From assembly GCA_031283185.1 (NCBI GenBank), contig JAITCH010000003.1, positions 39,900 through 103,899 of the forward strand: 64,000 nucleotides of DNA, given 5' to 3'. The notes below the pieces were generated by a model. It made no database searches, was not told the DNA's origin, and saw only the letters and a program-made list of their open reading frames with translations. Positions 26,084-48,768 of the stretch are shown here, one piece after another. Origin of the DNA: Rickettsiales bacterium (GTDB lineage Bacteria > Pseudomonadota > Alphaproteobacteria > Rs-D84). The position numbers were made by a program, and so were the translations under genes. Within the stretch, counting starts at the first letter, position 1; each line of letters begins with the position of its first letter.

Positions 26084-26183
26084 ATGTGATTTTACATTTT
26101 TTGCCAGCGGATTTTTATAGGCAACTATTCTTACTGACATTTTGTGTGTGTTGTGCTTGGATTTCCGGGAATGGAGATTGCGA

Positions 26184-27590: not shown

Positions 27591-27667
27591 CGGGGCGTAG
27601 CTCAGTTTGGTAGAGTGCTTGCTTTGGGAGCAAGAAGTCGAAGGTTCGAATCCTTTCGCCCCGACCA
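27591..27667 (+). tRNA. tRNA-Pro (anticodon UGG), CCA encoded
   Basis: CGGGGCG acceptor stem pairs with CGCCCCG; anticodon arm CTTGC-TTTGGGA-GCAAG; T-arm GAAGG-TTCGAAT-CCTTT; ends ACCA. Confidence 0.92.
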
Positions 27668-27739
27668 ACTATTTTTGTCAAATTATTGTCTTGTTCAGCA
27701 AATAAAGAACTTAGTAGTAGTGAAACAATAAGTTTAATA

Positions 27740-28441: not shown

Positions 28442-29846
28442 TTGTAATCCTTTCGTTCATATAATGGTTAAGAAATTTAGCCAGGTCAATTGATGAAAAT
28501 GTATAATACCCGCCGCTTTTATAATTTTTCAAAGCATACACATAGTTCAAAAATTCATCGGACATAAGTGCAGATTGAATTTCTTTTATGTGTTTGTCAG
28601 ATATGATATAAAGTCCGCCATAAACGCCACAGCCCGCCGGGACAAAATTTACTTTCAAAGAGTTTTTATCTTTTATTAATTGATTCACTGCGATTTTATT
28701 TTTTGACACATCGCGGAGTGCTTGCGATCGCCCAAACAAATACCATTCGTTTTTATTTGTAATGGCTCGTTTTTCCAGTTTTTCACGATTTGCGGACATA
28801 TGCTCCCAAATGTATTTATTATCACGCACAGCAAATTCCGGTAATGGCGAACCATCGGTTTTATAAGGGAATATACATTTAGTCCATTTGCCAGTAGAAG
28901 ACTTTATGATTTTGATAATATTTTTATTGTCCGCAAAATCGCCGATGAAAATATCATCCGCCAAAGTTGCAAATCCGTTTTTAACCGCAATGCTTTTGTC
29001 ATTCAAATAATGTGTTTCCATATCTCGTAATTTTTGTAGCATACTGCGCGGAGCGAGATAAATTTTTCCATTTATAAACGCGTCATTAAAAGTTAAATTA
29101 TCCACAAAATTTATTTTGCCTGCACCATTATAGCGATAATAAGAAAAGTCTTTGCGGTCATCCGTCACAGCATTATCAAATAAGGAAATCATTGTATATG
29201 TGGTGGCAGGGAAAGGCTGAAAATGTTCCAAATCTATAATCCCGCGCAAATTGCGGCGATTGAATATATAATTACGAAAACTTGCGCCTGCACTGCTGTT
29301 AAGACAAGAACTTGGTGTAATCAGGCACATCTTGCCGGTAGGGGACAGCATATTTAATCCAATCTCGAAAAACACTAAATATAAATCGGTCATGCCTTCG
29401 GATGAAAAGGCGAAATTTTTCGCACCGACATCCATATTATGCACCCGGACATAGGGTGGGTTTCCAACAACAAAATCCATTTTACCAAAGTATGATTTGC
29501 CCAGTTCCAAAGCATCGCCGCAAACAATGTTCCATTGGACATTTGATAAACCGAATTCGGTCGCAACACAATCAAGATTTTCTAAACATTTTCTGTATTC
29601 TGTTGGGTCTTTTTCAATCCCATGAATATATGTTTCAAGTTCAGATTTTAATGAATCGCGCGAATAAACTTTGCAATAACGCCGGACAATTTCGCAAAGG
29701 AACGCTCCATCGCCGCAACTATTTTCCATAATATGTTTGTTGATGATTGGAAATCCATTATAGCCGATAAAATCAAGCATATCTTTTACAAGGTATGCCG
29801 GTGTAAAAACCTGACCCTCTGACTTAATTTTGGCTTTTGGGGACAT
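28413..29846 (-). CDS. N6-adenine DNA methyltransferase (gamma-class, TaqI/Eco57I-like)
   Basis: 477 aa; GQVFTPAYLVKDML, motif I ENSCGDGAFL, motif IV VVGNPPYV. Confidence 0.88.
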   Translation of the reverse strand: MSPKAKIKSEGQVFTPAYLVKDMLDFIGYNGFPIINKHIMENSCGDGAFLCEIVRRYCKVYSRDSLKSELETYIHGIEKDPTEYRKCLENLDCVATEFGLSNVQWNIVCGDALELGKSYFGKMDFVVGNPPYVRVHNMDVGAKNFAFSSEGMTDLYLVFFEIGLNMLSPTGKMCLITPSSCLNSSAGASFRNYIFNRRNLRGIIDLEHFQPFPATTYTMISLFDNAVTDDRKDFSYYRYNGAGKINFVDNLTFNDAFINGKIYLAPRSMLQKLRDMETHYLNDKSIAVKNGFATLADDIFIGDFADNKNIIKIIKSSTGKWTKCIFPYKTDGSPLPEFAVRDNKYIWEHMSANREKLEKRAITNKNEWYLFGRSQALRDVSKNKIAVNQLIKDKNSLKVNFVPAGCGVYGGLYIISDKHIKEIQSALMSDEFLNYVYALKNYKSGGYYTFSSIDLAKFLNHYMNERITNGFELVANY

Positions 29847-29976: not shown

Positions 29977-30006
29977 TTGACCCGCTGGCGCGATTTCAAG
30001 TATTAT
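29977..30006 (+). promoter_or_regulatory. candidate promoter giving a leaderless mRNA
   Basis: TTGACC, 18-nt spacer, TATTAT; -10 box ends 7 nt before ATG 30014; no SD. Confidence 0.45.
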
Positions 30007-30013
30007 ATGCTTT

Positions 30014-31108
30014 ATGAGGAAGTCTATACTGATTTTCGCCGCACTTTTCACGACCGCCACGGCGCGCGCCGATTATGATAATTATCTCAGCGGCTACACT
30101 CGCCCGATGCAAGTCCAGGCGACCGCGGCGGATTTCGTTTCGCCGGAAAGTTATAATTATATGCAGCCTTATCTGAATGCGGGAATGATGCGCCAACTCA
30201 GCCCCGACAGGACGATGATGCAGAATCAGACGACTCAGTTTAAGCGCAAGGTTATGCCGCGTTCTTATAATTCGGCGGCTCGGTCGGCGGCCGCGCCGGA
30301 TGTGGCGGCGGCCTCGGCGACATTGCAGGCGCGGGGCGCGGGGTTTGACTTGCCGCAGACGGTGCAGACTACGCGCGGGTCGGTTGGCGCGGCGCGGAAT
30401 AGCACTCCGCAGGATCGGCAGATGCGGAATGGGATTCCCGGTTCGGATATGGAGGGCTTGACCCTTACGCCGCAGTGGGCAGATCCAAAGTTGGCGCGGG
30501 CGGCGGATATAAATGCGGGGATTCAGGCGGGTGGGCTTACTTCGACAGGGCGTAGGATTACGGCCAGGGGCGGACATAATACGGGCGCGGCGCGATCGGC
30601 GACTGTGCAGACCGGGGGCAGGTTGACACCTAACGCGGGCTCAGTGCCATTGGCGCAGACGACCGGGGCGTCAGAAGTATCATTGTCGCAGTGTATGGCG
30701 GATTATAAAAAATGTATGGATGGATATTGTAGCCGTCCGGCAAGCAAGTATGACAGGTGTTATTGTTCGGCCAAGTTGGCGCAATTGGACGCGAAGTTTC
30801 AGCCGCAAATAGAAATGGCGCAGAAAAAGTTGGCGGTGTTGTCGGTAAGCGGCAAAGTGGATGATTGGTCGGCGACAGATGCGGGTAATGTTTTTGATTG
30901 GGCAGGGACGGAGGCGACCATAAAGGGGCAGGAAGCATATTTAGCAGGGAATAATGTATGTAGTAAAAGGATGTATGGGTGTTATTATGCGGCGAGCCAG
31001 TTGACTAATTTGTATCGGTCGGAGATGAGTAAGAGTTGTAAGGCATATGAGAATTATTTGACTGCATTCTTGAATTCATTAGAAGCCCAAGTGGCCAACT
31101 ACTATTAA
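30014..31108 (+). CDS. secreted cysteine-motif family protein, member 1 (short form)
   Basis: 364 aa; signal MRKSILIFAALFTTATARA; Ala/Arg/Ser-rich region; CMADYKKCMDGYCSRPASKYDRCYCS at 30692-30769. Confidence 0.85.
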   Translation: MRKSILIFAALFTTATARADYDNYLSGYTRPMQVQATAADFVSPESYNYMQPYLNAGMMRQLSPDRTMMQNQTTQFKRKVMPRSYNSAARSAAAPDVAAASATLQARGAGFDLPQTVQTTRGSVGAARNSTPQDRQMRNGIPGSDMEGLTLTPQWADPKLARAADINAGIQAGGLTSTGRRITARGGHNTGAARSATVQTGGRLTPNAGSVPLAQTTGASEVSLSQCMADYKKCMDGYCSRPASKYDRCYCSAKLAQLDAKFQPQIEMAQKKLAVLSVSGKVDDWSATDAGNVFDWAGTEATIKGQEAYLAGNNVCSKRMYGCYYAASQLTNLYRSEMSKSCKAYENYLTAFLNSLEAQVANYY

Positions 31109-31127
31109 TTCCCCGACACTTCCTTCC

Positions 31128-31156
31128 GTCATCCCGGCGAAGGCCGGGATATTTTG
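31128..31156. repeat. short palindromic element, family D variant
   Basis: gtcatcccggcgaaggccgggatattttg. Confidence 0.7.
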
Positions 31157-31282
31157 TCATACGCGTCGCGTCCACCTATATATTCGCCGCACCCAACTAC
31201 CCTAACACCTCGGCATTATATAACATAGGCTAAATAGATAACATTTGCGTCATCCATATTATTAAGATATAATTTGTTTCAA

Positions 31283-32095
31283 ATGAGCAGCACCAACATC
31301 AAACTTTTCGAGAATAAAAATATTCGCACATTGTGGGATGACAAGGCGGAAAAATGGTATTTCGCAATTGTGGATATTGTTGATGCTTTAACCGATAGCA
31401 AAGATGCGCGCAACTATTGGTATGTTCTTAAAAGCCGTCTAAAATCGGAAGGTAGTGAAGTCCTTACAAATTGTAAGGGGTTGAAAATGCTTGCTCCCGA
31501 TGGGAAGATGCGCGAAACAGATGCCGCTGATACCGCTCAAATCCTTCGCATAATTCAATCAATCCCCAGTCCAAAGGCCGAGCCGTTCAAAGTATGGCTG
31601 GCGCAAGTCGGCAGTGAGAGACTAGACGAAATCGCTGATCCAGAGGTTGCGATTCATCGCGCGCTTGATTATTATCGCCGCAAGGGATATTCCGAGGGTT
31701 GGATTGTTCAGAGATTAAAATCCATTGAAATCCGAAAGGAACTTACCAACGAATGGGATCGCGGCGGTGTTCAAAAGGGCTTGGAATACGCGATGTTGAC
31801 GGATGAACTTACTAATGCTTGGGCAGGAATGACTACGCGGGAATATAAGCAGGTCAAAGACCTTAAAAAAGAATCTTTGCGGGATAATATGACCAATGCG
31901 GAATTGGTTTTGAATATGTTGGCGGAATTATCCACTACGGAAATTGCCAGACAAGAAAAGCCGCAGGGTTTGGCGGGACAGATGAGTGCAGCCAAGCGCG
32001 GTGGTGCTGTTGCCGGTATTGCGCGGAAAAAACTGGAATTGGAAACTGGCAAGCCGGTTATTACAGGCAAAAATGCAAAGTTATTGAAGAAATAA
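31283..32095 (+). CDS. Bro-N domain protein, copy 2
   Basis: 270 aa; promoter and first ~100 nt nearly identical to copy 1 at 19290. Confidence 0.8.
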   Translation: MSSTNIKLFENKNIRTLWDDKAEKWYFAIVDIVDALTDSKDARNYWYVLKSRLKSEGSEVLTNCKGLKMLAPDGKMRETDAADTAQILRIIQSIPSPKAEPFKVWLAQVGSERLDEIADPEVAIHRALDYYRRKGYSEGWIVQRLKSIEIRKELTNEWDRGGVQKGLEYAMLTDELTNAWAGMTTREYKQVKDLKKESLRDNMTNAELVLNMLAELSTTEIARQEKPQGLAGQMSAAKRGGAVAGIARKKLELETGKPVITGKNAKLLKK

Positions 32096-32197
32096 TTAGT
32101 TTCTCAGCGGTTATAGTTATAACAATAAATAGACGAATTACCATTTGTTAATCCCCTTAAAAAGTGCTATAATATATTAATAATGAAGGAGTTTCTC

Positions 32198-34438
32198 ATG
32201 CCGAGAATAATGCAATTATTCGCTGCAATAACCTTATCCGTATTCTGTTTTGCGGATGTTATCGCCGACCCAATTCAAATGGAACAGCCCCAACAGGCGA
32301 CCCAATCGTCCCCGCGTTCGCGTAGTGCGGCGGCGGCGAGCAGGGCGCGGTCTTCCAGCGGAAATGTCCAGGATTCGATTAACGCGGCAATCAGCGGACA
32401 GCCTCAACGCGAAGTCATTATAGGTTCGCGTTCTGGTCAGGCGCGGACGGCGGTGAATACGGCGCAGGTTCAGACGGCGCAGGGGCAAGGCGTGCAAACG
32501 GCAGAATCTTCGCGTGTTTCTCGCGGTCGTGCGGCTCGGCGCGCTGCGGCGCGTTCGGCGATAGCGGCACCGCAGGCCGAAGGTGCCGAGGCAGTTGCAC
32601 AGCCGCAGGCGCATAGCCGGACGGTATCGCCGCGTGCGGCGGCGGCTCGGTCTGGATTGGCGACTGGGACGGCGACCCGGACGGTATCTGCGCGGGCGAG
32701 TTTGCGTGGCAGTCCGATAGCGGCGGCGGCGAATGCGGGCAATACGGCGCGTTCTGCGGTATGGAATTATGGAAGTGCATTATCTGGGATTGTTGATGAT
32801 ACGACTGGGACATTGTCAGCGGATTCGTATAGCGAATGCTTGGACGCGTATTATTCATGTATGGATGACATATGCACGGCGCGCAGTCCGGGTATGCGTA
32901 GATGCGCTTGTTCAAATAGAACGAATGCGCATTCGGGGCTGGAAGAGCAGTTATTCACATCAAAGGAAAACATATTAAAGGTGTCTTACGAATTGCAGAT
33001 GTTGATTGCGACCAAGGGTGGAGATTTAAGCGCGGCATTCCAGTTGACTGATGCGGAATTGTCATTGAATTGCGTTTCTTATCGTGAGGCCTATGCCAAG
33101 GATCAGTCTAGCAAAAATACAACCAAAACAGAAGTTAAAAACTGGTGTGCAAATCATAGTAATGGTAATTCATCCATGATGTCCGGCGAACATTATAGTT
33201 CCTCGGCCGACTGCCTTACTCTTGGTCCTGCGGGTCCTGCATATTGTGTTCGTTTGATGGGAACATTGGGCGCGGCGACTTTGTCTGGTAGCGACAGCGA
33301 CATAATGACGCAGTTGCAGAATATCGCGTCAAGTGTGGACAGCTCAAAGTTTTTAGAGAGTAAGAATGAAGACTTTTTCAGCAGCTTGTTTTCCAACAGC
33401 AATTTATATAACGACGGCTTAGGTTTTCAATCCGAAGAAACATGCGAAATCCCGTCTACTAAGGCAAAGTGCACCAAAGGTGATAAGGATTGTATCTGTA
33501 TTAAGAGCAAGAACCAAACCGATGTGCTAGATATTTGGGGCAAGGACTTGTTTGATTTTGCACATACCAATGTGTGCAAGCGGGTTTTGGATGCTTGCTT
33601 TGCCGGAATATGCGGATGGAGTTATACGGCAGATGCCAATGATCCGACAAAACCGCTGATTCTTGCATCAAACCCTGCTGACAAGGATATTGATACAGAT
33701 TGTTGGAACAAGCAGATAAAATCTAGCATTGGCACTCGTCCTGGACAAGGTGCTGCGAGCGCGAATAAATATACGACAGCGAACGACGGATATTATGGTT
33801 TGCGTGGTCCTGTTACCCAGGCTCGGTTCAGCATAATGCAGAAATATCATTTTGATGCGAATGCGGACTGCGATGTATATGGCGAAGATCTGAAAAAGCA
33901 AACACAGAATATATCGTTGCAAATGATCGCGGCGGAACAGATGTTGAAACAGAAACGGCTTGAATTCGCGCAGGAAAGGGCAACCGTAGCAGGCAAGGAA
34001 TTATCCGATGCACGGGTAAGTTTTGTGAACTGCATAGATCAGATAACTCAGTGCTTTAACAGTCTTAAATCCACCAATGAAGATAAGCACTATGGTTGGT
34101 CGGATAATTATATAAAGACGAAATGCTCTGTGGTGTCGGAAATTCCTGCCTGTTATCAGCCGATGCTTTGCGATAGCGGTGCGGATAAATTAGTGCCAAA
34201 GGATGTTTATACTGTAACAAAAGCGGTTGCTCCGGCTACATCGGATTCGCAGCTGTTAACATCGTATAGGAATGTAGTTGGTTTGAATGACATATTATAT
34301 AGAAATAAAGAAACCAGCAATTGTACGACGGGCACTGGCGGAGTCCAAACATGCACCCAAACTCCTGGAACGATTGAAGAATGCCTTAGCAAGGAGAGCG
34401 TGATTACAGATAGCATCCGTGTTATGGGCACGATTTAA
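32198..34438 (+). CDS. secreted cysteine-motif family protein, member 2
   Basis: 746 aa from ATG 32198 (AAGGAG SD); signal peptide; ARSA-repeat region; CLDAYYSCMDDICTARSPGMRRCACS at 32837-32914. Confidence 0.85.
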   Translation: MPRIMQLFAAITLSVFCFADVIADPIQMEQPQQATQSSPRSRSAAAASRARSSSGNVQDSINAAISGQPQREVIIGSRSGQARTAVNTAQVQTAQGQGVQTAESSRVSRGRAARRAAARSAIAAPQAEGAEAVAQPQAHSRTVSPRAAAARSGLATGTATRTVSARASLRGSPIAAAANAGNTARSAVWNYGSALSGIVDDTTGTLSADSYSECLDAYYSCMDDICTARSPGMRRCACSNRTNAHSGLEEQLFTSKENILKVSYELQMLIATKGGDLSAAFQLTDAELSLNCVSYREAYAKDQSSKNTTKTEVKNWCANHSNGNSSMMSGEHYSSSADCLTLGPAGPAYCVRLMGTLGAATLSGSDSDIMTQLQNIASSVDSSKFLESKNEDFFSSLFSNSNLYNDGLGFQSEETCEIPSTKAKCTKGDKDCICIKSKNQTDVLDIWGKDLFDFAHTNVCKRVLDACFAGICGWSYTADANDPTKPLILASNPADKDIDTDCWNKQIKSSIGTRPGQGAASANKYTTANDGYYGLRGPVTQARFSIMQKYHFDANADCDVYGEDLKKQTQNISLQMIAAEQMLKQKRLEFAQERATVAGKELSDARVSFVNCIDQITQCFNSLKSTNEDKHYGWSDNYIKTKCSVVSEIPACYQPMLCDSGADKLVPKDVYTVTKAVAPATSDSQLLTSYRNVVGLNDILYRNKETSNCTTGTGGVQTCTQTPGTIEECLSKESVITDSIRVMGTI

Positions 34439-34467
34439 GATTGTGGCGAGGGTTGAGTGGATAATTA

Positions 34468-36804
34468 ATGAATGAAAAAAAGTTAATTTTAATTAGTCTT
34501 ATATTCTGCCTCCCGCTAGCAATGGCGGGAGCGGACACAGATGCTAATACTGCTCGCGCCGCCGCCACCAAACAGCAAATCATCAACACTCAGATAAAGC
34601 CTCGCCCGGTCGCGGACGATAAAGTCCCCTTCGCTGGCGAAGGGGTGGACGGCAAAGCCGGACGGGGTAGTGGTAATAATGCGTCATCTCGCACAGCATC
34701 CGCAACTCCATCAACCACCCAATCCCGCACTGCCGTCCAAACGGCCACCGCACCTGCGCCGACCACAGATGCCGCGCGTTCCGTCCAAACGCGGCGCACT
34801 ACAACTGCGGCAACTGAACCGGCCGTGCGTTCCGATGCTGCCCGTGGAACGCGGAGTGTTGCTGACGAAATTTCCGAACGCGTGCCGGTATCTGCTCGTT
34901 CTGCATCTACTTCGCCGCGCCGTGGCGATACTGGCACGGGTCGTCAATCGGTCGCCGCAAGCGGCGGTCGCGCGATTGTATCGCGGACTGGCGAATATAC
35001 GACTTCCAACTTTGATGTGCGTTCGTCTTCGCATCGTTCTGCCCGCGCTCGCGCGGCGGTGGACGAAGACGCGCCCGTTTCCAATTCTGCCGTGGACAGC
35101 ATTATGAAGGATGCTGCGTTAACATCTTGCGCCGCGCGTTATGAAGAATGTATGGATCAGTTTTGCGATGTTGTGGATGACAATCAGAAACGCTGTTCTT
35201 GTTCCGGCAATTTGCAAAACTTCAAGGATGCGGAAGACCAGTTGAAAAAGGCGAATCAGAATCTGAATACGGTCGCGCAGAATATCCGCTATGTTGGATT
35301 GTCCGCCGAAGAAATTTATGCTTTGTTTAACGAGACCGAGGCGGAGCAAGCAATGCGCGGTGTGAATGATATTTCGCAGACGCGGAGTTTGTTGGAAGAG
35401 ATTGAAAAAATCATTGCTGGCGCAACCGACGACCTTAACAGCAAGGGCGCGCAGAAACTGGGTGGTGGCGTGAATATGTTTGACCTTGCGTTGGACGGGA
35501 ATGCGATGGATATGGACGCGTTGTTTGGAACTGGCAGTGCGAATAATATGTCGAATCTTCGCGGGACATCGCTGAAAAATGCGGCGGCGAAGAAATGCCA
35601 GAACATAGTGAATGATTGCAAAAAGGAAGGGGTCAAGGCGGATCAGTTGACTGCGAATTATGATCTGAAAATTGATAAGTCTTGTTTGGAATATGAAAAG
35701 ACGCTGACCAAGATGAATGATTCTGTTACGAATAATATCCGCTCTGCGAATACTATGTTGCAGAAAGCGCGGCTTGCGGTGTTAGAGAGTCAGAATGAAT
35801 ATGACTTCAAGGGTTGCGTGCAAATGATTGATAATTGCATTTTGGAAGATACTTCATGCGGCAAGAATTATATTAAATGCCTTGATCCAACGCGCAACTT
35901 CTTGGACGAAACAGGCAAGGTTATACTTGGTGGAAATCTACCTATGATTAAATACGCGTTCTCTAAATGTTCCGCGTCAACCGATTCTAGTTTATGTAGT
36001 AAAATTTGTATAACATCAACCGGGGCGAGTTGCACCGAAGGCGTAAATGGTTGCACTTGTAATAGCACATACACAGATATGAAATCTATGGTTGACGATG
36101 GTAGTAATAAGGTTGCGAATCTTCTAATGCAGAAAATCGGCAATGATCCTAAGGCTGGTGGTATGTGTATAGATGTGGTAAAAAGTTGCAGGCGGTTGAC
36201 TTATAAAGACGGCGCATATAATCCTGCGAATGAAGTTGTGCGTGAATATAAATTGCGCGCCGTTAGTCAGATGAAATCTGCGGCGGCCAAGGTGGTTTCG
36301 GATTACGCGAATAAATGTCTGACGGATGTTGGAACTTGTTATAGTAATCAGATGACCAATATATCTGCCTGGACATCGGTATATGCTGGGGTAAGTGCCG
36401 AGAATGTAAAGAATGTAATGCTTGGGGCTTGTCGCACGGTTTCATATACTTGTTCATCTGCGATATTCGAGGCTGATATAGTATCTTGCCCGCGCCCGCC
36501 GGTTTGGCCGGAAACTGCTTCGGTGCCATCAACTACGCAAGAGGATAAATGTATAGATAGTCTTTCCAAGTTGTTCTACAACTCACTTCTTTGCGGACCC
36601 AATATGGAATATAAACAGGTTACGGACAGATACTCGACCGATAGTCCGAAGAAAAAGGAATATAAATGTGTTTGCCAGTTTGGATATGAAAGTGTGGGCG
36701 GAGTATGCCGTCTATGTCCGAATGGCGCGGATGCTGCGGTCAATATGGAGGCTGGTTCCGATTATATACTTTACGGCGAAACGAAATGCAAACCAACGCC
36801 ATAG
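34468..36804 (+). CDS. secreted cysteine-motif family protein, member 3
   Basis: 778 aa; signal MNEKKLILISLIFCLPLAMAGA; CAARYEECMDQFCDVVDDNQKRCSCS at 35128-35205; second motif GCVQMIDNCILEDTSCGKNYIKC. Confidence 0.88.
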   Translation: MNEKKLILISLIFCLPLAMAGADTDANTARAAATKQQIINTQIKPRPVADDKVPFAGEGVDGKAGRGSGNNASSRTASATPSTTQSRTAVQTATAPAPTTDAARSVQTRRTTTAATEPAVRSDAARGTRSVADEISERVPVSARSASTSPRRGDTGTGRQSVAASGGRAIVSRTGEYTTSNFDVRSSSHRSARARAAVDEDAPVSNSAVDSIMKDAALTSCAARYEECMDQFCDVVDDNQKRCSCSGNLQNFKDAEDQLKKANQNLNTVAQNIRYVGLSAEEIYALFNETEAEQAMRGVNDISQTRSLLEEIEKIIAGATDDLNSKGAQKLGGGVNMFDLALDGNAMDMDALFGTGSANNMSNLRGTSLKNAAAKKCQNIVNDCKKEGVKADQLTANYDLKIDKSCLEYEKTLTKMNDSVTNNIRSANTMLQKARLAVLESQNEYDFKGCVQMIDNCILEDTSCGKNYIKCLDPTRNFLDETGKVILGGNLPMIKYAFSKCSASTDSSLCSKICITSTGASCTEGVNGCTCNSTYTDMKSMVDDGSNKVANLLMQKIGNDPKAGGMCIDVVKSCRRLTYKDGAYNPANEVVREYKLRAVSQMKSAAAKVVSDYANKCLTDVGTCYSNQMTNISAWTSVYAGVSAENVKNVMLGACRTVSYTCSSAIFEADIVSCPRPPVWPETASVPSTTQEDKCIDSLSKLFYNSLLCGPNMEYKQVTDRYSTDSPKKKEYKCVCQFGYESVGGVCRLCPNGADAAVNMEAGSDYILYGETKCKPTP
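34624..34677. repeat. family B palindromic element inserted in-frame in member 3
   Basis: gtccccttcgctggcgaaggggtggacggcaaagccggacggggtagtggtaat, translated VPFAGEGVDGKAGRGSGN; same element is intergenic at 45723, 49491, 50781, 56798. Confidence 0.85.
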
Positions 36805-36813
36805 AGAAACAAA

Positions 36814-38646
36814 ATGACAAAGTTGCGTATAATTTTTATTGCTTTGATTTCGTGCTTTGTCCTGACCGACACGCAGGCGGTCGCGCCATCGCGTGAAAAT
36901 TCCCGCACCACTACAACTGCGGACACTTCACAAACCACTCAATCCCGTTCCGCCGCTGAAAGTCCCCCTCAAAGGCGAAGGGGTGGCGGCGAAGCCGCCG
37001 GGGTAGTGGATAAAAAAAATCAAACAACTCAATCCCGTTCCGCCACAACACAACCTCGTTCCAACATCGCCCGTTCAGCCGCCACAAATAATAATGTCAT
37101 CCCACGGCTTGACCGGGGGATCTCGGCCGATAAATCTCGTTCCGCACTTCGCCGTGCGCCCGATAAAAATCCTAACGACTTAAAACCTTTACTCGCCCCG
37201 CGTTCCGTCCTCGCTCGCGCGGCGACTACTGCAACTCCCGGCACCAGTTTCGGCGATGCGGATTATAATACCTGTAAAGATGCTTATATGAATTGTATGG
37301 ATCAATTCTGTGGCGAGGCGGATGACACATATCATAGATGTATCTGCTCCAACAAGGTTGTTGACTTGCAGGCGCGTGCTGCGGCTGTGGAAAGCGCGAC
37401 TGCCGCATTGCAGAATTTCATTGCGGTTGATACTCTGACCATCGGTCTGGATGCCGAAGATGCCGTTGCGATGTTCAACGCGACAGAGGGCGAACTGGCG
37501 GTTCCAAAGGGCGAAGATAAATCCGCATTCGCGGGTAAATTGGATGACATTGCAAACCAGTTGCTTGGCGCGTCCAGTTCTAAAAGCCCGGCTAAGAAAT
37601 CTGCGGGCTCAAAATTTACGACTATTGACCTTAACGATCTCAGCGCGGATTTATTTGGCGGGAACAAGGGCGCGTCTGTGGATGTAAATCTGACCGGGGA
37701 TTCTCTTTATAATAATGTGCATTTGCAATGTTCGGATATGGTGGGCAAAATATGCTCGCAGAAAAATATCGGCCTTGTGGTGTCGCTTTATAAACAGGGT
37801 ATAAATAAGGATTGCGATGCCGCGGCCAAAAGTATGAAGGCCAAGGAAGACAATGTGAAAAAAGGCGTTACCAATACGCAGGTTGCATTGATGGAGGCGC
37901 GCTTAGAGGCGCACGAATCCCGCAATTCGCTTTCGGATTTGGAATGTTTGGAAGACGCGCTGAAACGAATGACCGATGATTTGGTTTGCGGCAAGGATTA
38001 TAGCAAGTGCCTTGATTTTTCGGGTCAGTATATAGATTCTCGCACGGGCAATCCGATTTATACTCCGAAATTTGGACACCTTGCGGATTGGCTGACGCTG
38101 CCGGACACGACCAAGAATCAGATGACGATGCGCGATGTTCCTGCGAACGCAGTGTTTATAAACAAATTGGATGAAATGCGGATATTCATAGAAAAAGATG
38201 TGTTGAAAAATTGCCAAAGTGTAGCGGACAGAATTTGGGGTCAAGTGGTTGATCGTGCGCTGATCGAGATTAAGAACGCGCAGCGGGACAAGGTTGATCA
38301 GGTGCGCGATCAGTGTATTGCGAAATTGGGAAGTTGCTTGGATGTGCAGACTGGCGCGTTTGACGGATTGAGGGATATTGTAGAGGGCACTCCGACAACG
38401 GCGAGTCCCAAGGCAGGCGAGGATGTGTTAAAGGGTCGTGATCCGAGCAGCCCCGAGGCGGTAGATTTGGCACTTGTTATATGCGAAGAATTAAAAAAGT
38501 CGTGTATTAGTGTATATGGCGATGTATTTGGGCAGTATTTGGAAGACGCGCTTAGCCGGACGCGGGCTATATGTACTTCGACATTAAAGGGCAAATGGAC
38601 GACTGCTGCGGATGGCACGCAGCAATGCCATATCATATTTCAATAA
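36814..38646 (+). CDS. secreted cysteine-motif family protein, member 4
   Basis: 610 aa; signal MTKLRIIFIALISCFVLTDTQA; CKDAYMNCMDQFCGEADDTYHRCICS at 37273-37350; second motif ECLEDALKRMTDDLVCGKDYSKC. Confidence 0.88.
   Translation: MTKLRIIFIALISCFVLTDTQAVAPSRENSRTTTTADTSQTTQSRSAAESPPQRRRGGGEAAGVVDKKNQTTQSRSATTQPRSNIARSAATNNNVIPRLDRGISADKSRSALRRAPDKNPNDLKPLLAPRSVLARAATTATPGTSFGDADYNTCKDAYMNCMDQFCGEADDTYHRCICSNKVVDLQARAAAVESATAALQNFIAVDTLTIGLDAEDAVAMFNATEGELAVPKGEDKSAFAGKLDDIANQLLGASSSKSPAKKSAGSKFTTIDLNDLSADLFGGNKGASVDVNLTGDSLYNNVHLQCSDMVGKICSQKNIGLVVSLYKQGINKDCDAAAKSMKAKEDNVKKGVTNTQVALMEARLEAHESRNSLSDLECLEDALKRMTDDLVCGKDYSKCLDFSGQYIDSRTGNPIYTPKFGHLADWLTLPDTTKNQMTMRDVPANAVFINKLDEMRIFIEKDVLKNCQSVADRIWGQVVDRALIEIKNAQRDKVDQVRDQCIAKLGSCLDVQTGAFDGLRDIVEGTPTTASPKAGEDVLKGRDPSSPEAVDLALVICEELKKSCISVYGDVFGQYLEDALSRTRAICTSTLKGKWTTAADGTQQCHIIFQ
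36962..37009. repeat. degenerate family B element in-frame in member 4
   Basis: gtccccctcaaaggcgaaggggtggcggcgaagccgccggggtagtgg, translated SPPQRRRGGGEAAGVV. Confidence 0.7.
37096..37128. repeat. family A element in-frame in member 4
   Basis: gtcatcccacggcttgaccgggggatctcggcc, translated VIPRLDRGISA. Confidence 0.85.
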
Positions 38647-38657: not shown

Positions 38658-38708
38658 TTCCCCGCCAATGGTGGCGGGGTGTCCGGCTTTGCCGGACGGG
38701 GTGGTTAG
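38658..38708. repeat. family B palindromic element
   Basis: ttccccgccaatggtggcggggtgtccggctttgccggacggggtggttag. Confidence 0.85.
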
Positions 38709-38762
38709 AAAATTTCCCTTGCCAACCGCTAAAATCCCGCTATAATCACATACAAATAAATA

Positions 38763-38810: not shown

Positions 38811-39098
38811 ATGGCGAAAGACGACGCGATTGTAATGAACGGCGAGATAACGGAAAAACTTCCGAATACTATGTTTCGTGTGAAACTTGAAAACGGACAT
38901 ATGATATTGGGCACAGTTTCCGGCAAGATTCGCAAGCATAATGTGTGGGTTGCCGTGGGTCATAAAGTGCAGGTTGAAATGACGCCGTATGATTTGAATC
39001 GCGGCCGGATTATATTCCGCGAGAAAGAGGTAAAGCCAGGTGCCGCGCCGACCGCAACACCTGCCGCACCAACCGAAGAAAATAAACCCGCCCTATAA
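38811..39098 (+). CDS. infA: translation initiation factor IF-1 with Pro/Ala/Thr-rich C-terminal extension
   Basis: 95 aa; S1-like core [33 protein letters not shown]...[16 protein letters not shown]. Confidence 0.93.
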
Positions 39099-39147
39099 TT
39101 CCCCGCCAATGGTGGCGGGGTGGCGGCTTTGCCGCCGGGGTGGTTAG
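39099..39147. repeat. family B palindromic element
   Basis: ttccccgccaatggtggcggggtggcggctttgccgccggggtggttag. Confidence 0.85.
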
Positions 39148-39173
39148 AATAAAAAAATAAAAAGGAAAACCAA

Positions 39174-39536
39174 ATGTTCTCAGTTCTTTTAACCGCATTG
39201 ATAGTCGTAACGATTTTGATGATTGGGGTAATACTCTTGCAAAAATCCGAAGGTTCGGGAATGTCTGGGTCAAGCGCGGCATCAATGTTCGCGGGCGTGT
39301 TGACCGGCGCGAGCGCAGGGAATTTCTTGACCAAGTTGACGGCGATATTGGCGGCGTTGTTTTTCGCGCTTTGTATGGCATTGGCGATTGTGGTTTCTAA
39401 TCAGGGCAATACTAGACCGACATCTGATTTACGGAGAGAGTTGGCTGCTGCGGCAGAAATCACGGACGAGCCACAGGCGGAAATTCCTACTGCGGATAAT
39501 GTTCCTGTCGAACCTATCCAAATCCCAGAAGATTAA
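39174..39536 (+). CDS. secG: preprotein translocase subunit SecG
   Basis: 120 aa; ILLQKSEGSGMSGS...FLTKLTAILAALFF typical SecG, with acidic C-terminal extension. Confidence 0.88.
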   Translation: MFSVLLTALIVVTILMIGVILLQKSEGSGMSGSSAASMFAGVLTGASAGNFLTKLTAILAALFFALCMALAIVVSNQGNTRPTSDLRRELAAAAEITDEPQAEIPTADNVPVEPIQIPED

Positions 39537-39624: not shown

Positions 39625-40386
39625 ATGAAACTCAATAATTTCATCTTTATTGCGGCATCAATTTTCGCAGTTTTTTCTGCGACAAATGCATTTGCATTGG
39701 ATCTTTCAAAACTTGATTCCGCTGTCGCGGAAAAAAGAAATTCTCCCAGTCAAGATTTGAATAGTTGCATAGCCAGGGTTGTGCAATCCGATAAGATTGT
39801 GGGTAAAAAACTTTCCGAGGGAAAAGAAAAAGAGATTATAGATAAAGAATGTGCCAAAGAAATTGCAGCGAATTCAGCGAAAACAACTGCTGCTCCGATG
39901 GCGCAGAAATCGCAGGTCGGAGAGAAAACGACTGACCCGGAAGTGTTGAAACAGATTAAAGAAGAAAAGGCAGATCAGCAGATTCACGCGGCGGGCAAAT
40001 CCGATGCGCCAGAGTTGAAATTAAAAACGCGCAAGGTTGGGCTTGATAACGATGCAGAGATTGCGCGGATTGAAAAATCCGTTAGTGATAAACCAAAGGC
40101 TCCCGCTATTGCTGCGGCGCCAGCGAAGAGCGAGAATTCCATAGCAGAAATTGATAAAGAAATTGCTTCATTGAAACAGGATCTTGCGAAAGAGGAAAAG
40201 AAAGAATCGCAGCCGCAGCGGGAACTTACCGAAAAGGAAAAGGCCGAGGTTGCATTGCTGACGAAAAATTTTGAGGATGCGACTAAGAATAAAGAAGTTA
40301 ACGATAAAAATGTTGCGGCATTTGAGAAACTCGTTAATGATTTTGAAGCGGCGATGAAAAAATACGGAATAAACCTCGCCGGATAA
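39625..40386 (+). CDS. secreted Lys/Glu-rich coiled-coil protein
   Basis: 253 aa; signal MKLNNFIFIAASIFAVFSATNAFA; TGATAAAAT box ends 7 nt before ATG. Confidence 0.75.
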   Translation: MKLNNFIFIAASIFAVFSATNAFALDLSKLDSAVAEKRNSPSQDLNSCIARVVQSDKIVGKKLSEGKEKEIIDKECAKEIAANSAKTTAAPMAQKSQVGEKTTDPEVLKQIKEEKADQQIHAAGKSDAPELKLKTRKVGLDNDAEIARIEKSVSDKPKAPAIAAAPAKSENSIAEIDKEIASLKQDLAKEEKKESQPQRELTEKEKAEVALLTKNFEDATKNKEVNDKNVAAFEKLVNDFEAAMKKYGINLAG

Positions 40387-44490: not shown

Positions 44491-45519
44491 TTATTCAATA
44501 ATAATCTGCACGACTTTGTGTAGGCGACCTTTTTGAGTGGCGTTGATGGGCATTTTTTCATCCGGGTTGAACAGGAAGCCGTATAATTTTCCGTCATCCA
44601 TATTTTCTTTAACGACTACGATGTGTGCGACTATGGATTCGCCTTCTTTTATGTCGGAGTAGTTTTTCGGCAGCAAGACTGCGAGGTCGCCGGCCTGCAC
44701 ATTTGCGGACGGATTGACCAAGGCATATGACCGCGCGGGCAATACATTTTGCAAGCGACGCGAGTTAGGCATAATGGCATATATGTCGGGTTGACCTTCA
44801 AGTGCGGCTGGCGCGATGATCATTTTATCTTCGGATTTTTTGAATGCGATGGCATTGTCTTGGGGCGCGCCGAAGATAGGGATCATGCGATTGCGAGTCA
44901 GTTCATACATTTTCGCGCCGTAAAGGGTTCCTGCGACATTTATACCGGAAAGGTTTCCACCGGACATAGTGATAGATTTGGGTGCTTCTGCCGGGGCATC
45001 GGATTTAGTTTTCAGTTTGCCGGATTCGTGAAGTTGATATATATCGCGGATAAGGTTTTCGGGGGTGCGTTGCACCATAGTGGCAAGGTTTTTAATTTCG
45101 TCTTCATAGACATCGCGTTGCCCGACTTCAATGTGGTGATATACGGACAGGGTCATCTTTGCATCTTTGGCTGCCTGGACGATGGTTTTTCCCATATTCT
45201 TGCGAATGTGGCGAAGACCTGCGCCAAAGATTTTAAGGCCGGAATCTTCATTTTTCTTAAAGCGGCGGGACATTTCGGATTGCCATTCTTCAATGGCGTC
45301 TTTGTCGTTTTCTTTGATGAACAGGTCGGAAATTTTGCAACCGAGAACTTCGCAAAGTTTCAGCATAACCTTTTGGTTAATGCGGCGATAGCCCTTTTCG
45401 ATTTTAGACATCGCGGACAGGGATAAGTTGGTCTGCTTTGCGAGTTCGGTCATTTTTATGCCGGATTCCAGGCGGATTTTGCGTAGATTGTTTGCGAAAC
45501 AAATTTCTTCCAAGGCCAT
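44491..45519 (-). CDS. XRE-family regulator with two HTH domains and a CI/S24-like C-terminal domain
   Basis: 342 aa from ATG 45519 (AGGAG SD); HTH1 NLRKIRLESGIKMTELAKQTNLSLSAMSKIEKG, HTH2 LRHIRKNMGKTIVQAAKDAKMTLSVYHHIEVG; the longer ORF upstream is repeat-derived. Confidence 0.8.
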   Translation of the reverse strand: MALEEICFANNLRKIRLESGIKMTELAKQTNLSLSAMSKIEKGYRRINQKVMLKLCEVLGCKISDLFIKENDKDAIEEWQSEMSRRFKKNEDSGLKIFGAGLRHIRKNMGKTIVQAAKDAKMTLSVYHHIEVGQRDVYEDEIKNLATMVQRTPENLIRDIYQLHESGKLKTKSDAPAEAPKSITMSGGNLSGINVAGTLYGAKMYELTRNRMIPIFGAPQDNAIAFKKSEDKMIIAPAALEGQPDIYAIMPNSRRLQNVLPARSYALVNPSANVQAGDLAVLLPKNYSDIKEGESIVAHIVVVKENMDDGKLYGFLFNPDEKMPINATQKGRLHKVVQIIIE

Positions 45520-45540
45520 TGCCAACTCCTTTCTATTTAA

Positions 45541-45773
45541 TTCCCCGCCAATGGTGGCGGGGTGTCGCGCCGTAGCAAAGCGTAGGCGGACGGGGTGGTT
45601 AGATTTTTTCGTGTCAACATCATAGGCAACATTGTCAACTTTGTCAAGTATTAATTGAAAGCGGGTGGGGGTCTCCCGACCCCCACCCGTCATCCCCGCG
45701 AAGGCGGGAATAGGGCTCTTAATTCCCCTTCGCTGGCGAAGGGGTGGACGCGAAGCGGACGGGGTAGTGGTAG
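45541..45773. repeat. pile-up of palindromic elements (B, GC hairpin, D, B)
   Basis: 45541-45602 (B), 45663-45688 (gggtgggggtctcccgacccccaccc), 45689-45715 (D), 45723-45773 (B). Confidence 0.85.
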
Positions 45774-45828: not shown

Positions 45829-48768
45829 ATGAACACGAATAAATTTGCATTTTTGGCGATTTGCGGTGGATTTCTGCTGACTATGGCGGCGGATTCCGCG
45901 CCATCTCCGCGCGGTGGTGGACGCGGTGCGCCTGCGGCTGCTCCGGCGGGCGGCGCGCCTGTTGCATCGGCAAGATCTGCTACGACCCGCGGCGGCGGTG
46001 CACCGACTGCAACGGCGGCGGCACCATCAGCTGAGCCGGTGGCGAGTGCGCGTTCAGCGACAACCAGGGGCGGCGGGGCACCTACGGCTACTGCGGCTGC
46101 TCCGGCAGGCGGCGCGCCTGTGGTTTCGGCTCGGTCTGGCGTAAAGCAGACGACAATTCAGAAAAATGTAACGGTTAACCAGGCGGTGCAGGCGAGCGGC
46201 ATTTATGACGAAGAGTGTAAGACTATGCTGTTCGGATGCTTTGACCAGTTTTGTTTTGCAGGGAATGAGAATGGGGCAAGATGTAATTGTTCCAATGACA
46301 AGGATCCGATTGATAAATTGGCGGATGAAATTGCATCGCTTGAAAAGCAGGCGATAAATATATCCACGACCGGGGTGGAGACTGTTGCGCTGGGCGCAAA
46401 GGCGAATGTTATATTTGGAGACGGACAGATTCAGTATGATAAAGATGGCAATATAATTGATACTGCCAAGGTTGCGCGGGACGAGGCTACGGGCAAGACT
46501 GCGGCCAAGAAAGAAAAGCGCAAATTGACTTTTGGTTCGGACGATCTTGATGACTTGGATGACGGCGGCTTTGACGAGATGTTTGATAGTTCTGTGGCTG
46601 GCGCGGGCAAAAAGGGCCAGGCGTTGTTCCGTAGCGCGTATGATTCGTGCAAGGGCAAAGTTCCGCAGAATTGCCAAAAAGACATGCAGATGCTGATGCA
46701 GGTTTATAATGCGAGCATTGCATCAGATTGCAAGGGCTATTCGATAGAGATGGAGTCGCGGAAAAAGCAGATGTTGGCCAAGGTTGAAGAGGCCAAGAAA
46801 ATGGTGCGCGATGCACATATAGAGGCTTATGAAGAACAGAATAAATACAATCGCGGCGAATGTATGTTGGAATTTCGGAAATGTATGGCGGACAAGGACA
46901 GGGGCGGCTGCGGAACGGATTTCTCAGGATGCGCTGGTGCGGCGGGTCAGGCAAAGTTGACATTGGATGAAAAGAACAAAGTCGCGCAGAAAAGCCGGAC
47001 TATGACGAATGCGTCTGTGCCGGATGAAAATATCACGATTACATTTGCGGCCAGCACAATGGAAGTTTTAGAAAGCAAAAGATTTGTGTGCGAGCGCGTG
47101 TTGGATCAGTGTATGTCTGTGCGTCAGTTTGTGTGGGGTGATTTCTTGCGTGAAGTTGCGCCGACTATGCGCCAGGCGGAATTGAATTCGGAAAGTAATT
47201 TGCGTCAGAATTGTCTTAAAAATGTTACGGATTGTGTGCATAACGCGTGCCAGTCGGATATGGCTGGGACTGGTGCGGATATGAATATGTGTTTGGGCAA
47301 TCCCGATATGGCGAAAAGTTTCTGCAAGGTTCAGATAGACCAGTGTCAGATAGTGCAGGGCGAAGGTTTGTGGGAGGCGGTCAAATCGAGATTAGCGGCG
47401 ATGCGGGTTGATGCTTGCACGGACGAAGTGAAGAGTTGCTTTAAGAACGAGAATCGTTGTGGCGATACATATACGGCTTGTATTGGATTGGACTTGGCGG
47501 CGTTAAAGCAGATGTGCCCGTTGGACGCGTTGCCGGTCTGCACGAAGAATAGCACGATAAAATCTTGGGACGATGGCATATCACAGATAGTGCAGGGTAT
47601 ATTTCTGAATGTTGATAATAGTATGCTTACGGAATGCCAGAATCTGGTGGATAATAAGATGAACGAGATTTGCGGTGAAACACACGAATGCCTTGCTTTC
47701 ACATCAGACGACGACATCGGCGCAAGCCAGTTGCATGGCAATAAAGCCCCCAATGGTAATTGGCTTATAACTGGTTTAATTCAATTTGGCTTAATTGATA
47801 TAAAACTTGATAGCAATCAGAATGCAAACAGGGTTGAAGATCGGGATCGCAATGCGAATTGGTATGTTATAGACACTTCAACTTATATGGGTAAATTATG
47901 CGGGGTTAATGATGTTAATGGCAACTGCACTGATATAGCAGGTGTTAATGCCACGGAGATAAAGGGTGTTATAGAGGCGGAATTAAAAAACATCCAGGGT
48001 CGCGCGAACAAGGTTATGGATATGATTGCGACCGATCCAAAGATTTCTATGTGTATCAATGGACGCGATATGAGCCAAATCACAGGCGGTAGTCAGACAG
48101 AGGCGCGTTTCCCGAATCTTTTGCAGTCAACTTCTGCACAGGTTATGAATGCGGCGATATTAAAGGCAAGCCAGAATCATGCTAAAAAGGTGGCAGAAGA
48201 AACTGCGAAGGCTCTCAAAGAGGCTAATGCTGATGCCAAAAATTCGCTTTGCATTGATATGATAGAAAAACTAATTAGGTCGAAGGAAAATCAGAATCAG
48301 TTAGGTGCTCGGGAGCAGGGCAAATTGGACGGCGTTAAATTATCTAGTATTGCGGTTGAAATATCCGCATTAAAATCTGAATCTGGTAAAAGTGTTAGAC
48401 CGATGTCGCCTGAATATAAAATAGATACGAGTGGCATTACAAAAGTGGATGAAAAAGGTATTATGACTCAGATTGTTGGTGCGGCTGGTGTTGGTGGTGC
48501 GGTTACGGCTCTTGCATTAACCGCCGCCTCGCCGGCCGGATGGGTTATGGCTGGTATTGGCCTTGTTGGTGCGCTCGCTAGCAATATCTTTGGTGGCGCG
48601 ACAAGTATTGATATAAACGGTACTATACAGAGTTCATTTGATAAAGAAACATTAACTTGCACGGTTAAAAAGAATATAAAAACTTGCAAAACTACAAAGG
48701 GCGGTTGGTTCACAAAAACGAAACAAGATTGCAAAGACGACAATACCACTACCCCCATTAAAATGTAA
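45829..48768 (+). CDS. secreted cysteine-motif family protein, member 5 (largest, C-terminal Gly-rich TM segments)
   Basis: 979 aa; signal peptide; tandem ASARSATTRGGGAPTATAAAP repeat; CKTMLFGCFDQFCFAGNENGARCNCS at 46216-46293; second motif ECMLEFRKCMADKDRGGCGTDFSGC. Confidence 0.88.
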   Translation: MNTNKFAFLAICGGFLLTMAADSAPSPRGGGRGAPAAAPAGGAPVASARSATTRGGGAPTATAAAPSAEPVASARSATTRGGGAPTATAAAPAGGAPVVSARSGVKQTTIQKNVTVNQAVQASGIYDEECKTMLFGCFDQFCFAGNENGARCNCSNDKDPIDKLADEIASLEKQAINISTTGVETVALGAKANVIFGDGQIQYDKDGNIIDTAKVARDEATGKTAAKKEKRKLTFGSDDLDDLDDGGFDEMFDSSVAGAGKKGQALFRSAYDSCKGKVPQNCQKDMQMLMQVYNASIASDCKGYSIEMESRKKQMLAKVEEAKKMVRDAHIEAYEEQNKYNRGECMLEFRKCMADKDRGGCGTDFSGCAGAAGQAKLTLDEKNKVAQKSRTMTNASVPDENITITFAASTMEVLESKRFVCERVLDQCMSVRQFVWGDFLREVAPTMRQAELNSESNLRQNCLKNVTDCVHNACQSDMAGTGADMNMCLGNPDMAKSFCKVQIDQCQIVQGEGLWEAVKSRLAAMRVDACTDEVKSCFKNENRCGDTYTACIGLDLAALKQMCPLDALPVCTKNSTIKSWDDGISQIVQGIFLNVDNSMLTECQNLVDNKMNEICGETHECLAFTSDDDIGASQLHGNKAPNGNWLITGLIQFGLIDIKLDSNQNANRVEDRDRNANWYVIDTSTYMGKLCGVNDVNGNCTDIAGVNATEIKGVIEAELKNIQGRANKVMDMIATDPKISMCINGRDMSQITGGSQTEARFPNLLQSTSAQVMNAAILKASQNHAKKVAEETAKALKEANADAKNSLCIDMIEKLIRSKENQNQLGAREQGKLDGVKLSSIAVEISALKSESGKSVRPMSPEYKIDTSGITKVDEKGIMTQIVGAAGVGGAVTALALTAASPAGWVMAGIGLVGALASNIFGGATSIDINGTIQSSFDKETLTCTVKKNIKTCKTTKGGWFTKTKQDCKDDNTTTPIKM

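Follow-up and report, generated by a model that had tools for sequence, protein, structure and literature searches.

A large, order-restricted family of cysteine-invariant, all-alpha proteins, probably exported, in gut Alphaproteobacteria of the order Rs-D84

An array of large cysteine-rich genes on a contig from a Rickettsiales bacterium has led us to ask what these proteins are, how far they extend beyond this genome and what they might do for a bacterium of the order Rs-D84. The window under study, that is, the whole stretch analysed, comprises 64,000 nucleotides (nt) of contig JAITCH010000003.1 (assembly GCA_031283185.1, positions 39,900 to 103,899 of the forward strand). The initial annotation had singled out five genes sharing a signal peptide, a low-complexity N-terminal region and an invariant cysteine signature, and had read them as an unrecognised, lineage-specific set of disulfide-bonded envelope or host-interaction proteins. 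We refer to these five paralogous open reading frames (ORFs) as m1 to m5 (364, 746, 778, 610 and 979 amino acids, aa). They represent a real, large and previously undescribed family, unrelated to known families within the broad kind of exported cysteine-rich envelope or surface proteins. The genes and the elements read in and around them lie as follows.

29977..30006, + strand: promoter-like site (TTGACC-18-TATTAT) upstream of m1, a consensus match only
30014..31108, + strand: m1, 364 aa, a short member: signal peptide, cationic N-region of 204 aa, motif 1, 8 Cys
30692..30769, + strand: motif 1 in m1 (CMADYKKCMDGYCSRPASKYDRCYCS), regular-expression match
31131..31150, + strand: terminator-like hairpin after m1
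32198..34438, + strand: m2, 746 aa, 26 core Cys, opening the apparent m2-m3-m4 operon; AAGGAG ribosome-binding site before 32198
32837..32914, + strand: motif 1 in m2, regular-expression match
34468..36804, + strand: m3, 778 aa, 32 core Cys
35128..35205, + strand: motif 1 in m3, regular-expression match
35794..35880, + strand: motif 2 in m3, strict regular-expression match
36667..36708, + strand: EGF_2-like module in m3 (aa 734-747, CVCQFGYESVGGVC), a pattern match only, no Pfam EGF match
36814..38646, + strand: m4, 610 aa, 18 core Cys, ortholog of the order-wide 'YRRC' subfamily
37273..37350, + strand: motif 1 in m4, regular-expression match
37924..38010, + strand: motif 2 in m4, strict regular-expression match
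45829..48768, + strand: m5, 979 aa, 36 core Cys, orthologous to the best-conserved of the order-wide subfamilies
46216..46293, + strand: motif 1 in m5, regular-expression match
48466..48603, + strand: hydrophobic Gly/Ala-rich (Gly-zipper-like) segment of m5, aa ~880-925, recognised by composition

Each of the five ORFs is present exactly as first annotated. Motif 1, C-x3-[YL]-x2-C[MF]D-x-[FYI]C-x8-[RH]CxCS, occurs once in every one of them, and a six-frame regular-expression scan of the window returned it at the five positions originally given and nowhere else. Motif 2, at first ascribed to m3, m4 and m5 alike, matches strictly in m3 and m4 but not in m5, which bears a homologous motif with x8 instead of x5-6 spacing; m2 carries a degenerate version. 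Overall pairwise identity among the five is 22-28 %. Since a family profile hidden Markov model (HMM) matches exclusively these five among the ORFs of the window (E 9e-51 to 4e-158), the likeness of m1 to m5 is that of paralogs, a matter of homology with chance excluded. The intergenic gaps of 29 nt (m2-m3) and 9 nt (m3-m4) are also as annotated. Given these short gaps, the AAGGAG Shine-Dalgarno sequence preceding the start at 32198 (an alternative ATG lies at 32183), the promoter-like site upstream and the hairpin that follows m1, m2-m3-m4 looks like a single operon and m1, because of that hairpin, probably monocistronic. The C-terminal two-thirds of the family architecture are missing from m1; no ortholog of it was found, and it remained a singleton when 247 members were clustered.

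Are these proteins relatives of something already characterised? Searches of m1-m5 against Pfam, NCBIfam and PHROGs gave nothing above noise (Pfam-A at E <= 1), no recurrent Pfam family emerged from the 34 members of the m5-type alignment, and sequence-profile searches of the PDB with both alignments brought no match. The same holds for the fold: Foldseek found no match at E <= 0.001 for the m4 model against PDB and BFVD or for the m5 model against PDB, its best matches being generic long-helix proteins at E >= 0.16 and a template-modelling (TM) score <= 0.15. The claim that the family stands outside known families is therefore upheld by sequence and, for two models, by structure. A full-text literature search did not return the motif string CMDQFC, and the literature on Enterousia and Rs-D84 consists of genome descriptions in which the family goes unmentioned.

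The family is nonetheless widespread. A word-indexed search with the trimmed paralog alignment yielded 52 clusters, all 52 with the strict motif 1 and its CMDQFC core; all of them are free of Pfam domains, and the few names given read 'hypothetical protein'. An exhaustive HMMER search of 1.84 billion representatives recovered 1,072 proteins (representatives at 50 % identity) at E <= 1e-3, of which 605 reach E <= 1e-30; the m5 type alone accounts for 688 clusters at 90 % identity. Confirmed genomic loci number at least 588, with one genome per species, and the best 80 of these are nearly all metagenome-assembled genomes labelled Alphaproteobacteria, Candidatus Enterousia or 'Rickettsiales'; three of the 80 bear the label Muribaculaceae and are probably mis-binned. 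Metagenome matches come from termite-gut, rumen, other herbivore-gut and human-gut samples, together with one activated-sludge contig, and the closest relatives of the window genes are found on termite-gut contigs (P0054, 58 %; P0055, L083 and L084, 47-48 %). Nearly all members are thus restricted to gut Alphaproteobacteria of the order Rs-D84, that is, Candidatus Enterousia and its relatives, and the profile, fold and distribution searches that the initial annotation had proposed end with this order and with no characterised family. Members of this uncultured lineage have genomes below 1 Mb, devoid of respiration and of most biosynthesis, and are regarded as probable obligate symbionts or parasites that live on other cells (PMC12306168); they are described as dependent on a partner and lacking transporters (PMC12306168). 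No confirmed relative of the family was found on the 2.9 M viral contigs scanned. We considered a phage or mobile origin and rejected it, in view of the lack of viral contigs and of any PHROGs match and of the chromosomal, syntenic position of the orthologs.

The subfamilies differ in breadth. The m4 type (125 sequences) and the m5 type (111) are order-wide, the latter taking in the ~834-aa and ~744-aa genes of Enterousia as well as a ~1,000-aa type; m5 itself is 39 % identical to the ~834-aa gene (E 6e-158). The m3 type is narrower, with 6 sequences, and the m2 type has 2; m2 has orthologs in the relatives L001 (36 % identity) and L083 (43 %). A fixed arrangement of three members, two on one strand and one divergent, recurs in 49 of 82 loci, and the conserved module reads BOF - fam834 - fam744 <-> fam837 - small secreted protein, its flanks being a BOF/YgiW-type OB-fold protein (PF04076) and a secreted protein of 243 aa. 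The termite-gut locus L083 repeats the order of the window: m2, m3, infA, secG, a small Cys-rich secreted protein, a 214-aa protein, a divergent XRE regulator and m5-type genes. The infA gene, which directly follows m4 in the window, adjoins the m4 ortholog in Enterousia loci, so that a housekeeping gene is syntenic with the family in Enterousia and in L083. The paralogs are ancient subfamilies, kept as distinct subunits since before the order diversified. Within Enterousia, the identity of family members is 66 %, 66 % and 51 %, to be compared with 89 % for S6, 86 % for L9 and 44 % for a polymorphic membrane protein (PMP)-type autotransporter: the family evolves faster than core genes, moderately fast, in a manner neither explosive nor exceptional. 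Of the phrase 'rapidly diversifying, lineage-specific', the second half stands, by restriction to Rs-D84, and the first puts the emphasis in the wrong place, in the face of ancient subfamilies, order-wide orthologs and conserved gene order.

The protein anatomy is consistent with export. The N-termini of m1-m5 display a basic n-region, a hydrophobic h-region and a small-x-small site, which bears out, at the level of a heuristic, the cleavable signal peptide first proposed for all five; by a crude heuristic, a signal-peptide-like start is found in 259 of 287 full-length homologs (~90 %), and the exceptions resemble truncated gene calls. A lipobox, [LVI][ASTVI][GAS]C at the end of the signal peptide, is absent from m1-m5 on inspection, and a lipobox-like pattern occurs in 7 of the 287 homologs. 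The low-complexity region noticed at the outset is real: past the signal peptide, 107-204 aa in m1-m5 contain no cysteine, carry a net charge of +5 to +10 and are rich in A, S, T, R, G and Q. This N-region is cationic in 99 % of 173 homologs (median charge +12) and disordered in the AlphaFold2 models of m4 and m5; the remainder of the protein is net anionic in m2-m5 (-7 to -15) and stands at +2 in m1. The N-region of m1-m5 also shows an excess of a short motif, [AS]R[ST]A or AR[ST][AV], which is found 346 times in 173 independent homologs versus 50.5 expected from composition; its extended consensus is ~[TN][VS][AS]R[ST]A[TV], repeated as [VS][AS]R[ST]A. As side observations, the mature N-terminus A-x-[AQ]-P-[NS]-P-R-[GS] is conserved after the signal peptide in many m4- and m5-type members (m5 aa 21-30), and the Enterousia 834-type and 744-type proteins end in C-E-D-I-x-M; both may be sorting signals.

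Downstream of the N-region, the family is all-alpha. Where the initial annotation had predicted a coiled coil, AlphaFold2, run on m4 and m5 with family alignments, proposes long helices in a helical bundle. The m4 model (mean predicted local distance difference test score, pLDDT, 68.8; 203 residues at >= 90) has an all-alpha core with helices at 316-370, 464-513 and 547-590, and that of m5 (499 residues at pLDDT >= 70) has a mostly alpha core, in which helices of 44-61 residues are joined by a few minor beta elements and a C-terminal sheet of low confidence.

Into this helical core the cysteines are set with striking regularity. Their core counts in m1-m5 (8, 26, 32, 18 and 36) are all even, and many form C-x6-C pairs. 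No homolog examined departs from the motif cysteines, so that loss of conservation among orthologs, which the initial annotation had named as one of the findings that would speak against it, was not seen. Of the 18 cysteines in the core of m4, 17 show 100 % conservation across 61 sampled m4-type orthologs, and the extra cysteines of m4-type orthologs are gained or lost in correlated pairs (r up to 1.0). Across 467 distinct cores, which are phylogenetically related sequences for which a nominal p-value overstates the evidence, the cysteine count is even in 84 %, with sharp modes at 36 and 28; the odd minority includes 32 cores with 29 Cys. Finally, in L083 a membrane-anchored DsbA-family gene (PF01323/PF13462, CPFC active site) lies directly downstream of the m5 ortholog, and four Enterousia loci (L010, L066, L068 and L074), a closed genome included, have a DsbA homolog no more than a few kb from the cluster. 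Two of these genes are placed as follows.

L083, 12917-13756, + strand: DsbA-like gene with CPFC site, adjoining family genes
L010, 1535-2362, - strand: DsbA-like gene, likewise with CPFC site, beside the family cluster

The invariance, the pairwise gain and loss, the even counts and the DsbA-like gene near the cluster in relatives favour intramolecular disulfides that would staple neighbouring helices, and lend indirect support to the disulfide bonding suggested at first.

Where, then, might such proteins reside? Some clues come from modules fused to them. Five of the six very long members (1,504-1,845 aa) bear Listeria-Bacteroides repeats (PF09479) C-terminal to the family region, in 1-5 repeat stretches scoring 31-139 bits versus a cutoff of 27 (P0279, P0282, P0283, P0294 and P0318), and all five belong to the m3 subfamily; P0294 sits on a contig of just 6 kb, which is uninformative for gene context. 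The repeats are absent from m1-m5 (Pfam-A scan, E <= 1), and other long members, of 1,076-1,279 aa, have no extra recognisable Pfam domain. In addition, an EGF_2-like module (C-x-C-N-x-G-[YF]-x4-8-C) is present in 1-7 copies in the m3 subfamily, and 18 of 304 family members, most of them m3-type, contain the PROSITE EGF_2 pattern, C-x-C-x2-[GP]-[FYW]-x4-8-C, 1-7 times each; this evidence is at the pattern level, with no Pfam EGF match in the window proteins or their long relatives. Both kinds of module typically belong to proteins outside the cell or at its surface, and they give the strongest indication that m3-type proteins may be exposed at the surface, at least by their C-terminal end. The Gly-zipper-like segment of m5, in two parts (GAAGVGGAVTALALTAASPAGWVMAGIGLVGALAS), recurs in the Enterousia 744-type protein and could possibly be a membrane-inserting anchor. 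Taken together, the m3-type fusions, the DsbA-like neighbour in relatives and the segment of m5 point to an oxidised assembly in the envelope or exposed at the surface.

Comparison with several known systems is instructive. Like the chlamydial complex of OmcB/OmcA and MOMP, the family would consist of Sec-exported Cys-rich envelope proteins in a host-dependent bacterium of small genome that also encodes PMP-type autotransporters. Unlike OmcB/OmcA, it is all-alpha instead of beta-rich, shares no sequence similarity and has a long cationic disordered N-region, and its mostly even, invariant cysteines suggest intramolecular staples, not an intermolecular network. The OmcB/OmcA profiles (Chlam_OMP6 and Chlam_OMP3) match neither m1-m5 (E <= 1) nor the 34 m5-type members, and the comparison drawn at the outset with the chlamydial outer-membrane complex, offered then as analogy only, gains no positive support. 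The nearest structural principle would rather be that of disulfide-stapled helical hairpins, with other spacing and at another scale. In CHCH (twin Cx9C) proteins and alpha-hairpinins (CX3C), as proposed here, a cysteine pair on one face of a helix is bonded to the neighbouring antiparallel helix; the present family differs in its C-x6-C (i, i+7) spacing, in being bacterial and presumably exported, in its many staples and in the lack of homology. Helicobacter Hcp proteins (Sel1-like repeat) likewise form a secreted, multi-paralog alpha-helical family with disulfides bridging helix pairs, but their repeats are short hairpins of 36-44 aa, whereas our family has helices of 45-60 residues in proteins of 600-1,000 aa, C-x6-C spacing and another lineage; no Sel1/TPR-like Pfam match was obtained for m1-m5 or m5-type members. 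Surface proteins with PF09479 (the internalin B-repeat) share that repeat with long m3-type relatives, in which it is an accessory C-terminal module of some proteins and does not define the family. Glycine-zipper 2TM proteins such as SlyB/Pcp and the Rickettsia 17-kDa antigen resemble m5 and the Enterousia 744-type protein in their G/A-rich hydrophobic segment; m5, unlike them, is not a lipoprotein and has the segment near the C-terminus of a very large protein. The autotransporter beta-barrel PF03797 is absent from m1-m5, whose models are all-alpha, and was readily detected in the neighbouring PMP protein of L010. As for function, the nearest analogues may be the sets of disulfide-rich proteins that host-dependent bacteria have in their envelope or at their surface.

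One reading accommodates most of these observations, and we give it a probability of about one half. Each protein would be exported by Sec and relieved of its signal peptide by signal peptidase I, as the family-wide N-terminal sequences suggest. A periplasmic, membrane-anchored DsbA-type oxidoreductase would then oxidise the 8-36 cysteines into intramolecular disulfides, and i/i+7 C-x6-C pairs would staple long antiparallel alpha-helices into a rigid, elongated core; this step is deduced from the counts and invariance of the cysteines, their gain and loss in pairs, the AlphaFold2 models and the DsbA gene adjoining in relatives. The paralogs would act as non-redundant subunits of one envelope or cell-surface assembly, because ancient subfamilies have been retained in a conserved cluster of very small genomes. 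In such an assembly, m5-type and 744-type proteins would supply the hydrophobic Gly-zipper-like C-terminal anchor, m3-type proteins would display extracellular adhesion modules (EGF-like and, in longer relatives, Listeria-Bacteroides repeats), and the disordered cationic N-region with its [VS][AS]R[ST]A repeats would serve as a flexible tether or bind an anionic polymer, for which peptidoglycan, lipopolysaccharide (LPS) and the surface of the partner are candidates. The whole would form the contact or adhesion interface of Rs-D84 bacteria.

Several points weigh against this reading. The fusions are limited to the m3 subfamily, and m3 itself has a single pattern-level EGF-like match. The hydrophobic segment of m5 was not modelled as helices (pLDDT < 50) and gave no glycine-zipper Pfam match at E <= 1. 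A DsbA gene was looked for in the window and none was found; adjacency to DsbA is seen in only 5 of ~84 loci, a count partly limited by locus length, and the parity statistics suffer from the phylogenetic relatedness already mentioned. Rs-D84 bacteria reportedly lack respiration, a difficulty for the re-oxidation of DsbA. Synteny is the one ground for complex formation. There is, finally, no evident route across the outer membrane for an all-alpha protein that is not a lipoprotein, and for this reason a purely periplasmic location keeps some likelihood.

The main rival starts from that last difficulty. The proteins would be a periplasmic scaffold of Gly-zipper-anchored, disulfide-stapled struts, with the cationic N-region resting on peptidoglycan, that stabilises the envelope of a bacterium unable to make many of its own envelope components. 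Such a scaffold would agree with a Sec signal peptide unaccompanied by any recognisable outer-membrane translocation signal, with the periplasm as the place where DsbA works, with a disordered and cationic N-region, and with the neighbourhood, in which the BOF/YgiW-type OB-fold protein is typically periplasmic and, in L083, OmpA-domain and M23 peptidase genes lie nearby. We nevertheless regard it as rather unlikely: typically extracellular modules, the Listeria-Bacteroides repeats and EGF-like motifs, are borne by m3-type relatives, the divergence of the m4 type nearly matches that of a surface autotransporter, and three to five large paralogs seem too many for a plain strut. A lattice in the outer membrane, after the chlamydial fashion, with intermolecular disulfides between paralogs conferring osmotic rigidity, would account for the abundance of cysteines and for several co-encoded paralogs in genomes that also hold PMP-type autotransporters, and the odd-numbered minority of cores, such as the 32 with 29 Cys, could leave a free cysteine for cross-linking. 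Pfam reveals no OmcA/OmcB similarity, however, the fold is all-alpha and not beta-rich, and the even, invariant cysteines of m1-m5 and of 84 % of the family favour pairs within one chain, which makes the lattice improbable.

Two further explanations place the proteins elsewhere altogether. They could be secreted multi-component alpha-helical toxins or effectors, comparable to the tripartite pore formers of the ClyA family, that free nutrients from the membranes of a partner or host: long-helix paralogs are co-encoded, m5 has a hydrophobic segment, and the lineage depends on a partner and lacks transporters. Yet Foldseek returned no ClyA, Hbl, Nhe, Xax or Tc-like match (best E ~0.3-1, TM <= 0.15), none of the ClyA-family toxins Hbl, Nhe, AhlABC and XaxAB figures among the PDB matches listed, and no Pfam toxin family was matched. 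Known alpha-pore-forming toxins are, moreover, poor in cysteine and need a conformational freedom that dense stapling would restrict, and the cluster has no linked secretion system; we hold this explanation to be slightly less probable still than the lattice. Alternatively, the conserved cysteines might hold Zn or Fe-S in metal-binding or redox proteins, a thought encouraged by their invariant clusters and by an anaerobic habitat and a lineage without respiration, where oxidative folding is less obvious. Against it speak the dominant spacing, which is C-x6-C on helices and not CxxC, the lack of a conserved His partner in the invariant columns, a Sec export that implies unfolded and cofactor-free transit, the DsbA-like gene adjoining in relatives and the gain and loss of cysteines in pairs, and we consider it very improbable.

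The surroundings of the array in the window deserve a description of their own; the features concerned are these.

16771-18801, + strand: ComEC
20585-26140, - strand: 1,851-aa protein with Chlamydia-PMP repeats
27591-27667: tRNA-Pro, followed by a low-GC stretch (0.37-0.40); region 27591-29846
27740-28441, - strand: unannotated 233-aa ORF in the low-GC stretch
28413-29846, - strand: Eco57I-type N6 DNA methylase in the low-GC stretch
31274-32095, + strand: Bro-N domain gene between m1 and m2
38660-38710, 39101-39150, 45543-45562, 53037-53056 (- strand) and 56860-56879: GC-rich palindromic repeat of ~50 nt, core CCCCGCCAATGGTGGCGGGG
38811-39098, + strand: infA (IF-1), directly after m4
39174-39536, + strand: secG, following infA
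40771-41100, + strand: small secreted Cys-rich protein of 109 aa, 62 % identical to the 107-aa ORF of L083
L083, 4405-4728, - strand: that counterpart, 107 aa with 7 Cys, in the same neighbourhood
42663-43682, - strand: RhuM-family gene between m4 and m5
44491..45693, - strand: XRE-type helix-turn-helix regulator, divergent from m5; 75 % identical and in the same position in L083
54603-56735, - strand: VirD4/TraG-type coupling protein of a type IV secretion system

The XRE protein is more conserved than m5 with respect to L083 (75 % versus 48 %) and, by this identity and its unchanged position, is a candidate regulator; a copy of the palindromic repeat falls within the N-terminal part of the gene as called, and for this reason its true start probably lies further downstream. 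The repeat is present in five copies versus 0.02 expected, with a second hairpin after the core in at least the two copies that were read. It is mostly intergenic, for example on either side of infA, the copy at 45543 falling within the XRE ORF as called, at its 5' end, and looks like a REP (repetitive extragenic palindromic)-like or terminator-like element. An RNA gene was considered for the conserved stretch past m4 (38.8-39.1 kb) and discarded, since the sequence is that of infA, then secG, and the Rfam matches are noise. Just upstream of m1, the low-GC stretch is probably a restriction-modification island, and genes of mobile-element type (Bro-N and RhuM) are interspersed with the array. 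Further small ORFs with signal peptides occur at 39625-40386 and 42242-42601; the small secreted ORFs near the array may be additional envelope components.

The wider setting invoked by the initial annotation was found in part. The coupling protein of a type IV secretion system is indeed there, and the window and Enterousia alike have genes for PMP-type autotransporters close to the cluster; the PMP protein of the window has the Chlamydia-PMP repeats, but no beta-barrel domain was detected in it. The possible absence of lipid A is doubtful for the lineage because the relative L001 encodes PagL, a lipid A deacylase.

Lineage-specific uncharacterised secreted families are not rare. Neither the PDB nor the viral models searched contain a relative of the fold described here. 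It is tempting to go one step further and to imagine a new bacterial surface structure, a hetero-oligomeric coat or attachment organelle built of disulfide-stapled, very long alpha-helical subunits, by which these bacteria would dock onto partner cells and exploit them; we offer this as a tentative proposal, more doubtful than probable. If it were true, the partners would be other bacteria, protists or the host epithelium, and the family would be the key determinant of the lifestyle of a widespread uncultured gut group. Rs-D84 and Candidatus Enterousia are common inhabitants of the gut in ruminants, horses, chickens, humans and termites. Minimal genomes retain three to five large paralogs, which occupy more than 10 kb in this window alone. 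Because the cluster is conserved, every cysteine is preserved and large paralogs are kept in minimal genomes, the family is very likely central to the envelope of Rs-D84 bacteria or to their interface with a partner, and it offers an experimental handle on an uncultured lineage, through antibodies, landmarks for cryo-electron tomography and metaproteomic markers.

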